A stretch of 24,000 nucleotides of DNA. Source: Dermatophilaceae bacterium. GTDB taxonomy: Bacteria; Actinomycetota; Actinomycetes; Actinomycetales; Dermatophilaceae. Location: positions 13,815 through 37,814 of the forward strand of contig DASRVZ010000008.1 in NCBI GenBank assembly GCA_035654835.1, in the 5' to 3' direction. Position 1 is the first letter of the stretch. Each line of letters begins with the position of its first letter. A model generated the notes under the pieces. That model was not told the DNA's origin and did no database searches. It saw nothing but the letters and a program-made list of their open reading frames with translations. Both the position numbers and the translations under genes were made by a program. Of the stretch, positions 8,262 to 9,311 are shown piece after piece.

Positions 8262-8612
8262 TCGCCCGCTCCGATCCATGCAACCAGTGCCAACTCTTAA
8301 TTATCGGACTGGTGCAAGCCAAATAACAGCCCAATCTTCATGAGGACTGAAGAGCTCAACCGCGGTATTGCGGCAGCCAACGACCAGGCAAGGCCGGCTA
8401 GCTACTTACGGGAAACACCAGCGCGCACCGGCCACGACCTGTCCCTCGTTTGATGACGTCCTGGACAGGATTGGTGGTCAGGGCTGGCCCCCTCCAGCAC
8501 GTAAACTCGGTGTAAGCACGTGGTGCCGACCGTTAACGCACGATCCCTCTGGTTACGGTCCCGCGCTGCGGGTGAGCCGCCAAACCGGCAGCGCAAGACG
8601 AGGGACCCCAAG

Positions 8613-9311
8613 ATGTACGACCAGTCCTTGTTACTGCAGACGTTGTCACGATTCGCCGTGATTCTGCCGGCACGCTACGACCTGCAGGAAACGCTGAGCG
8701 AGCTCACGGAAAGCGCCACAGCGGTGTTGGGTCTGTGCGGTGCCTGGGTCACGATGGCCCACGATGGGCAGCTGACTGCAGTGAGCCAGGACTCCGCGGA
8801 GCTGCAGCGCGATCACGCGCAGCTACACCCCTTCCCGTGCCCGTGCCGAGACGCATACGCCACCGGTGAGGTGATCCGGGTGACCGACATCCGCGAGAAG
8901 ATCACCCACTGGCCTGAGTTCGCCGCTTCCGCCACCCGCTTGTCCATCGCAGGGGTCGCCGCGATACCGATGCGGCTGGCCGACCAGATCATCGGCGCCC
9001 TCAACCTCTACTCTCCGGAGCCGCGGCAGTGGTCGGATGAGGACATGGCGGTGGCCATGCTGCTGGCCGACGTGGCGACCAGCTACGTGGTCAACGCCTC
9101 CAAGCTGCACCAGCAGGAGCAGCTCAGCGAGCAGCTGCAAGAAGCACTGGAGTCACGCGTCGTCATCGAACAAGCCAAGGGGATCACCGCCCAGCAGCGC
9201 TCGGTCACCCCCGATCAGGCCTTCCAGTTGATGCGCTCGCACGCCCGCAACAACAACACCAGCCTGAGGGCAGTAGCCAAGGCGATCGTGTCTGTGGGGC
9301 TTCACGTCTGA
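8613..9311 (+). CDS. GAF + ANTAR domain RNA-binding (antitermination-type) regulator
   Basis: The C-terminus LESRVVIEQAKGITAQQRSVTPDQAFQLMRSHARNNNTSLRAVAKAIV is a textbook ANTAR signature. The N-terminal about 150 aa is GAF-like (..GAWVTMAHDGQL..GVAAIPMRLADQIIGALNLYS). ATG 8613 is preferred over the track TTG/GTG at 8520 because GAGGGA lies 7 nt upstream. Confidence 0.9.
   Translation: MYDQSLLLQTLSRFAVILPARYDLQETLSELTESATAVLGLCGAWVTMAHDGQLTAVSQDSAELQRDHAQLHPFPCPCRDAYATGEVIRVTDIREKITHWPEFAASATRLSIAGVAAIPMRLADQIIGALNLYSPEPRQWSDEDMAVAMLLADVATSYVVNASKLHQQEQLSEQLQEALESRVVIEQAKGITAQQRSVTPDQAFQLMRSHARNNNTSLRAVAKAIVSVGLHV

Follow-up and report, generated by a model that had tools for sequence, protein, structure and literature searches.

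Is the GAF-ANTAR regulator encoded next to the kaiC and kaiB genes of an uncultured actinobacterium a partner of the Kai timer, or only a neighbour of it? The locus lies in a MAG of the family Dermatophilaceae (3.2 Mb, 90% complete), of which a stretch of 24,000 nucleotides was analysed (contig C8:13815-37814, hereafter the window). Within the window, kaiC (6534..8261, minus strand) encodes a protein of 575 aa that matches Pfam KaiC in two stretches (2.4e-98), and the start of kaiB (6208..6537, minus strand; 109 aa, Pfam KaiB 1.6e-17) overlaps the kaiC stop. The GAF-ANTAR regulator gene (8613..9311, plus strand) is intact and encodes 232 aa with Pfam matches to ANTAR (8e-20) and GAF_2 (2.2e-15). 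The preliminary description of this DNA had placed the kaiC start at 8261 and the GAF-ANTAR start at 8613 with a gap of 351 bp between them, and both Pfam and the comparison of orthologues bear this out: the SD and ATG block of kaiC is conserved across ten orthologous loci and the GAF-ANTAR start (MYDQ...) is common to 46 homologues, so the spacer between the two genes is indeed 351 bp. An in-frame GTG at 8520 was considered as an alternative GAF-ANTAR start and rejected, because the indels among the aligned leaders have lengths not divisible by three, and this GTG lies in a non-coding leader. The genome contains one kaiC, one kaiB and 8 ANTAR domain matches, and the early caution that GAF-ANTAR proteins are abundant paralogues was therefore right.

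The timer genes resemble a known system. The best solved relative of the kaiC product is the R. sphaeroides KaiC structure 8DBA (5e-170), with residues 18-564 aligned, the tail included. The protein has the double-domain architecture with a C-terminal tail of the coiled-coil type and a Ser427-Ser428 pair; these two residues correspond in the alignment to the Ser pair of KaiC-RS, and neither varies among nine KaiCs of the genus. KaiA (PF07688) gave no match in the 90%-complete genome, in a search whose positive control worked. Read from its genes, the module resembles the KaiA-less KaiC-KaiB of the Rhodobacter hourglass type, and a timer of that type would have a phosphorylation cycle driven by the ATP/ADP ratio. 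It is worthwhile to compare it with the KaiBC hourglass timer of Rhodobacter (Cereibacter) sphaeroides (KaiC-RS, PDB 8DBA/8FWI; PMC10076222). The shared features are the missing KaiA match, the double-domain KaiC with its long C-terminal tail, the Ser-Ser pair at the aligned phosphosite position and the place of kaiB directly downstream of kaiC. The differences are of two kinds. Firstly, the host is an actinobacterium and its KaiC clade is genus-specific, with at most 56% identity to KaiCs elsewhere. Secondly, a gene for an RNA-binding GAF-ANTAR protein is linked to the module, and the PAS kinase is absent from the locus in the source genome.

Other kai arrangements were seen in the same genus. 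kaiC is expanded (L059, on G002:C122; L047:11406-15140), a single genome having as many as four matches, and the arrangements include two kaiCB units that face each other, with two kaiB genes and very large multi-PAS proteins alongside (a 1244-aa ORF has nine PAS repeats). One lineage, consisting of G019 and seven metagenome contigs, carries an identical 1-nt deletion in kaiC near codon 340 that splits the frame, with kaiB, the PAS kinase and the GAF-ANTAR gene intact (L051:943-2651; L284-L289; L311). Finally, G009:C86 contains an orphan full-length kaiB (L226:3059-3385) with 71% identity to the kaiB of the window; an unrelated 119-aa ORF stands at the kaiC position, and no kaiC was found in this 86%-complete genome.

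The GAF-ANTAR protein is composed of a GAF domain (residues 23-156), a helical linker and an ANTAR domain (residues 173-226). The ANTAR match (PF03861) reaches 70.8 bits against a cut-off of 27.3 and covers profile positions 1-54 of 54, the GAF_2 and GAF matches (PF13185/PF01590) score 57.5 and 53.5 bits, above the curated threshold, and Pfam finds no receiver domain. Kinases control ANTAR regulators of the kind of EutV and PdtaR. EutV is a REC-ANTAR protein, NasR a NIT-ANTAR protein (PDB 4AKK) and PdtaR the same protein as Rv1626 (PDB 1S8N). The ANTAR domain studied here aligns to NasR 4AKK, to 6WSH and to Rv1626 1S8N. The overall architecture is that of EutV, NasR, AmiR and PdtaR/Rv1626, in as much as the sensor is N-terminal to a helical linker and an ANTAR domain with a clear Pfam match. 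In contrast to these regulators, the protein senses through a GAF domain that bears a new His/Cys/Trp cluster, the search for a canonical dual-hexaloop target gave none, and no cognate kinase is implied; here the linkage suggests a Kai timer partner instead.

The relatives of the protein were followed through one uncultured Dermatophilaceae genus with 23 species genomes, where absence from an incomplete genome means that the gene was not found. The GAF-ANTAR family is specific to this genus, its paralogues are 63-100% identical, and each genome holds 1-4 full-length copies. In a maximum-likelihood tree of 46 genus copies, all 13 kaiC-adjacent copies fall in one clade (support 100/93), to which the window protein belongs, and so does one more copy on a 2.3-kb contig. 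Of the 33 paralogues without kai linkage, about 20 have, next downstream on the same strand, a conserved gene for a protein of ~340 aa (e.g. L065:3677-4714, L066:4674, L070:2874; range L065-L094). This neighbour protein has a weak, sub-threshold match to HATPase_c_2 (anti-sigma-kinase type), and the same gene family is also seen in two kai loci (L045, L048).

The kai-linked clade and kaiC occur together. kaiC is present in 15 of the 23 species genomes and the clade in 14, all 14 of them with the genus-type kaiC (the count includes a partial copy in G008, which bears the clade signature), while the clade was found in none of the nine genomes without genus kaiC, i.e. eight without any kaiC and G020, which has a distant kaiC only; as these genomes are fragmented and mutually related MAGs, the counts are descriptive and should not be read as statistics. 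The nearest relatives of the source genome by rpoBC, G021 (99% complete) and G007, at 97% nucleotide identity, are without both kaiC and the clade, and the distribution is therefore patchy and does not follow one subclade; for a usable species tree the rpoBC genes proved too fragmented in these MAGs. In G017, the same GAF-ANTAR clade pairs with a KaiC from another subclade. A reverse look-up gave the same picture, as 3 of 3 kai-type proteins picked from long contigs adjoin kaiCB. The preliminary description had proposed asking whether kaiCB and this GAF-ANTAR orthologue co-occur and stay adjacent across related genomes. Within the genus they do (14/14 versus 0/9, and adjacency with changing flanks), with the reservation that the association is genus-restricted and facultative.

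What separates the kai-linked clade from most paralogues is confined almost entirely to the GAF domain, and in the linker and the ANTAR half the two are nearly identical. The clade signature (8736..8846, plus strand) consists of C42, W45, H68, H72, a P73-F74 insertion and C76-P-C78, and reads H-x3-HPFxCPC, with C76 new beside the conserved C78; these His, Cys and Trp residues are absent from most paralogues. W45 and the PF insertion occur in 13 of 13 kai-clade copies versus 0 of 31 paralogues, H68, H72, C76 and C78 are invariant across 25 orthologues, and the signature was present in all 30 kaiC-adjacent or kai-type metagenome copies that were checked. A small sister clade without kai linkage has the His/Cys part and is missing W45 and the insertion; the alignment displays a stepwise origin of the signature. 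The pattern may point to a new site for a cofactor, a metal, redox chemistry or protein contact.

A wider view of the adjacency was obtained from 80 metagenome contigs with close KaiC relatives, which were merged with the GTDB loci into lineages at 97% identity. Where KaiC is at least 77% identical to that of the window, the GAF-ANTAR gene is divergent upstream in 12 lineages, convergent downstream in 5, and missing from 4 assessable ones. The corresponding numbers (divergent, convergent, assessable with none) are 0, 1 and 1 at 72-76% identity, 4, 0 and 6 at 62-71%, and 0, 0 and 4 below 60%. In the kaiC clade of the genus (groups A, A2 and B) the gene is thus adjacent in 22 lineages, 16 divergent and 6 convergent, and 11 assessable lineages are without it, having kaiC-kaiB mostly with a kinase. 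The divergent layout is the commonest and has a spacer of 200-350 bp; in the convergent layout the GAF-ANTAR gene lies tail-to-tail, 0-440 bp behind the kinase or kaiB. The convergent layout can have arisen by tandem duplication followed by differential loss.

The inner junction between kaiC and the GAF-ANTAR gene is constant while the outer flanks vary (at least 13 contexts). At the divergent loci, the outer neighbour comes from 13 families on the GAF-ANTAR side and from 10 beyond kaiB or the kinase. Within the genus the linkage is strong, and chance is an unlikely cause of the adjacency; related genomes are not independent samples. The junction is kept in changing contexts and in two layouts. 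The convergent layout shows that the linkage persists, which is no proof of selection. The surroundings are fluid. Window positions 2200-10250 are matched merely in scattered pieces even in the nearest relatives, at 97% rpoBC identity, the bet operon at 10237-17637 is matched in G018 only, and a comparison with G021 and G007 as empty sites found them too rearranged for insertion borders to be defined; the stretch 2200-10250 behaves like a variable, island-like region. Two loci, L313 and L314 (ENA ERZ27272696 and ERZ27272694), encode an identical GAF-ANTAR protein and agree in the genes called to its right, and one of the two contigs carries IS21-type transposase genes (IstA/IstB) instead of kaiC-kaiB and the left neighbours, a case of timer loss or rearrangement between strains.

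Beyond the genus, a search of 196 genomes from 72 further Dermatophilaceae genera gave no kaiC, and neither did 16 genomes that represented other families of the order. ANTAR genes near kai loci were sought with an HMM built from the eight diverse ANTAR domains of the source genome, which recovers every genus copy. None of 78 KaiC loci of other groups, including seven other Actinomycetota loci, has an ANTAR match within 8 kb. In a sample of 400 Actinomycetota genomes, kaiB occurs in 13, and none of the 16 kaiB loci of these 13 genomes has an ANTAR gene within 8 kb. The single weak ANTAR-like match, close to kaiBC in a different actinobacterium (L353), was rejected, since it is a ribbon-helix-helix antitoxin. 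With 94 outside kaiC or kaiB loci without ANTAR, the link between kaiCB and GAF-ANTAR is restricted to one genus, in which it is facultative.

This distribution has to be weighed against the main rival of a functional partnership, namely that kaiCB and the GAF-ANTAR gene were joined once in an island-like region of the genus ancestor and have since travelled together, by descent or block transfer, without any joint function. Such hitch-hiking would agree with the confinement of all cases to one genus, with a region that is highly rearranged between close relatives and has an IS21 element at the junction in one strain, and with the eleven lineages that do without the gene; moreover the paralogues have a different usual neighbour, the ~340-aa protein with its weak HATPase_c_2-like match, and the GAF-ANTAR family therefore has an independent life. 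A passenger gene is less easily reconciled with an inner junction that survives at least 13 outer contexts and two layouts, or with a clade that never appears in genomes without genus kaiC. Furthermore, the divergence of the sensor domain is specific to the linked clade, and G017 retains the GAF-ANTAR gene beside a different KaiC subclade. On balance we consider hitch-hiking less likely than a partnership, and we prefer to regard the GAF-ANTAR protein as a credible candidate partner of the KaiC-KaiB timer.

The preliminary description pointed to an AT-richer patch at about 8295-8335, and this is confirmed by the composition, GC being 0.565 in 8200-8399 versus ~0.66 around it. Two AT-richer conserved blocks lie here (8295..8334, minus strand), given in plus-strand letters as TCTTAATTAT (8295-8304) and AACAGCCCAA (8325-8334), and of ten orthologous spacers the majority keep both. 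On the minus strand GATAATTAAGAG is read some 35 nt upstream of the kaiC ATG, with GATAAT as the -10-like box of kaiC. A simple sigma-70 scan gave no consensus promoter; 8295-8334 is the probable kaiC promoter region. On the other side, 8476..8507 (plus strand) holds an imperfect palindrome, GGTCAGGGCTGGCC, and then a -10-like TAAACT (TAGACT in relatives). Palindrome and box are conserved among kai-linked copies, the convergent ones too, and this stretch is the probable promoter or operator of the GAF-ANTAR gene. As an operator of a regulon, the palindrome (GGTCA-N3-5-TGRCC) was rejected, for it has 96 matches in the genome, mostly coding, and is too common.

The transcript of the GAF-ANTAR gene would begin with a structured 5' leader (8513..8612, plus strand), in which a long-range helix P1 and the hairpins P2 and P3 are followed by the SD sequence GAGGGA. 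This leader of ~100 nt is common to about 45 paralogues and is found in every member of the family, kai-linked or not, with the -10-like TAGACT. RNAalifold predicts P1 and P3, the latter being the hairpin just before the SD; these helices are 94-96% paired and show modest covariation; the inner hairpin P2 is fully paired in the kai-linked copies only. A covariance model of the leader (R1) has its sole strong match in the source genome at 8513-8616 (95 bits). In the genus it gave 51 matches (one example copy is G013:C154:12113-12215), all of them at the starts of GAF-ANTAR genes or fragments apart from two exceptions without a listed gene, and outside the genus only matches of at most 26 bits. 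Rfam contains no family matching the spacer or leader at E values up to 10, barring a chance 13-bit ribozyme match, and in the whole window no match attains the gathering thresholds. The motif occurs only before GAF-ANTAR genes and hence no regulon is visible; the idea of a regulon reached through the leader motif was rejected, as all that R1 detected in the genus were the starts of GAF-ANTAR genes. The leader is a candidate autoregulatory RNA element.

The preliminary description had also suggested a scan for ANTAR targets. A known ANTAR target is a dual stem-loop whose hexaloops have A at position 1 and G at position 4, with a linker of 2-25 nt (PMC8164766). With a descriptor for dual hexaloop hairpins (A1, G4) based on this definition, no target was found in 8262-8612 on either strand, and the window as a whole had nothing above chance, with 10 loose matches versus 11.4 in shuffled sequences. 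Some of the loose matches are mentioned as weak leads at a count that equals chance: a dual-hairpin cluster at 4576-4649 (minus strand) in the long leader of a gene with a DivIVA domain, and a dual hairpin at 5346-5384 (plus strand) in the spacer before a small membrane protein. The leader itself was rejected as a canonical ANTAR target, since its loops are not hexanucleotides with A1 and G4 and that of P3 measures between 4 and 7 nt. Compared with the actinobacterial ANTAR-target RNAs (PMC8164766), the leader is similar in as much as a structured RNA ends at the ribosome-binding site, where many actinobacterial targets are located, and it is different in that hexanucleotide A1/G4 loops are missing.

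The elements of the spacer raise a second alternative, namely that the GAF-ANTAR protein regulates the kaiCB operon itself, through the kaiC mRNA or the shared divergent region, and does not relay the timer to other genes. A shared control region had been proposed at the outset, and the window does have divergent genes with 351 bp between them. As a conserved feature the shared region did not hold: in 6 lineages the GAF-ANTAR gene is convergent behind the kinase or kaiB, always with its own leader and probable promoter, and there is consequently no shared control region there. Regulation of kaiCB would suit the prevalence of the divergent layout with its 200-350-bp spacer (16 lineages) and the conserved blocks on the kaiC side. 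Against it stand the same six convergent lineages and, in addition, a kaiC leader that appears to span only ~35 nt and lacks a dual hairpin, a GAF-ANTAR leader model that matches nothing before kaiC, and the existence of kaiCB lineages without GAF-ANTAR. We find this alternative quite improbable.

It is also instructive to consider the kinase. Operons of the type kaiC-kaiB-PAS histidine kinase occur in non-cyanobacterial bacteria, and the preliminary description expected a PAS/histidine-kinase protein as the usual linked partner. This expectation fits many loci of the genus, where a PAS-HisKA-HATPase_c gene follows kaiB in exactly the kaiC-kaiB-PAS/HisKA/HATPase_c layout, and fails at the window locus, which is without a PAS kinase; the closest homologue of the kinase is on contig C161. 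The genus departs from these operons in that about two thirds of its assessable lineages add GAF-ANTAR, several of them without a kinase. That the GAF-ANTAR protein works in truth with the PAS histidine kinase and not with KaiB or KaiC, the window copy being a leftover after loss of the kinase, is very improbable: the kinase gene after kaiB in many loci, the convergent, tail-to-tail and overlapping genes in L049 and the kinase control of EutV and PdtaR would speak for it, but the protein has no receiver domain, at least nine lineages with the divergent layout, the window among them, have GAF-ANTAR beside kaiCB and no kinase at the locus, and kinase-bearing loci without GAF-ANTAR are common (L234-L239, L235, L249). 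Both this and the regulation of kaiCB fit the layouts less well.

We therefore return to the partnership with the timer, in which the GAF-ANTAR protein would be a dedicated accessory of the KaiBC module that adds a post-transcriptional branch, either as an output or as an input of a signal. We give this proposal roughly even chances. It would have originated by duplication within the resident GAF-ANTAR family of the genus, the new copy retaining the RNA-binding ANTAR half of the family and its own structured leader, while the GAF sensor would have been remodelled by the new His/Cys/Trp cluster. The GAF domain might then receive a signal of the timer pathway, such as the state of KaiB or KaiC by direct contact, or alternatively a redox, metal or small-molecule cue that is also relevant to the timer. 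ANTAR would subsequently bind a target RNA, at least the leader of its own gene, and alter translation or termination. The result would be a post-transcriptional branch beside the usual PAS histidine kinase or, in the source genome, one replacing it. The comparison establishes which genes these are, the dedicated clade, its co-occurrence and lasting adjacency with kaiC in changing surroundings, and the sensor signature; any binding to KaiB or KaiC, the nature of the ligand, the target RNA and the direction of the signal, input or output, are all points that we infer. A more far-reaching version is that, in an actinobacterium that is not photosynthetic, the KaiBC hourglass controls gene expression through RNA by way of a dedicated GAF-ANTAR protein whose His2/Cys3/Trp cluster senses redox, a metal or the state of KaiB/KaiC, and which here replaces the histidine-kinase output; this version we put forward tentatively, as possible and rather speculative.

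Known output and input partners of Kai proteins include SasA, CikA and PAS kinases. To our knowledge, the KaiBC partners described so far outside cyanobacteria are kinases, and the role of KaiBC and its signalling in these bacteria are largely open. The preliminary description knew of no ANTAR protein as a Kai partner, and a full-text literature search on KaiC and ANTAR likewise gave incidental co-mentions only. The pairing of kaiCB with GAF-ANTAR was seen in none of the other bacteria searched, and no paper on it was found. If hitch-hiking were the whole explanation, the locus would still illustrate well how a small accessory cassette for signalling moves within a genus. The sensor residues specific to the clade and the conserved leader offer concrete handles for testing. 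If the proposal is true, one of the GAF-ANTAR proteins, which are abundant in actinobacteria and poorly understood, would gain a function, and an RNA-binding partner of the antiterminator type would constitute a new class of Kai output or input.
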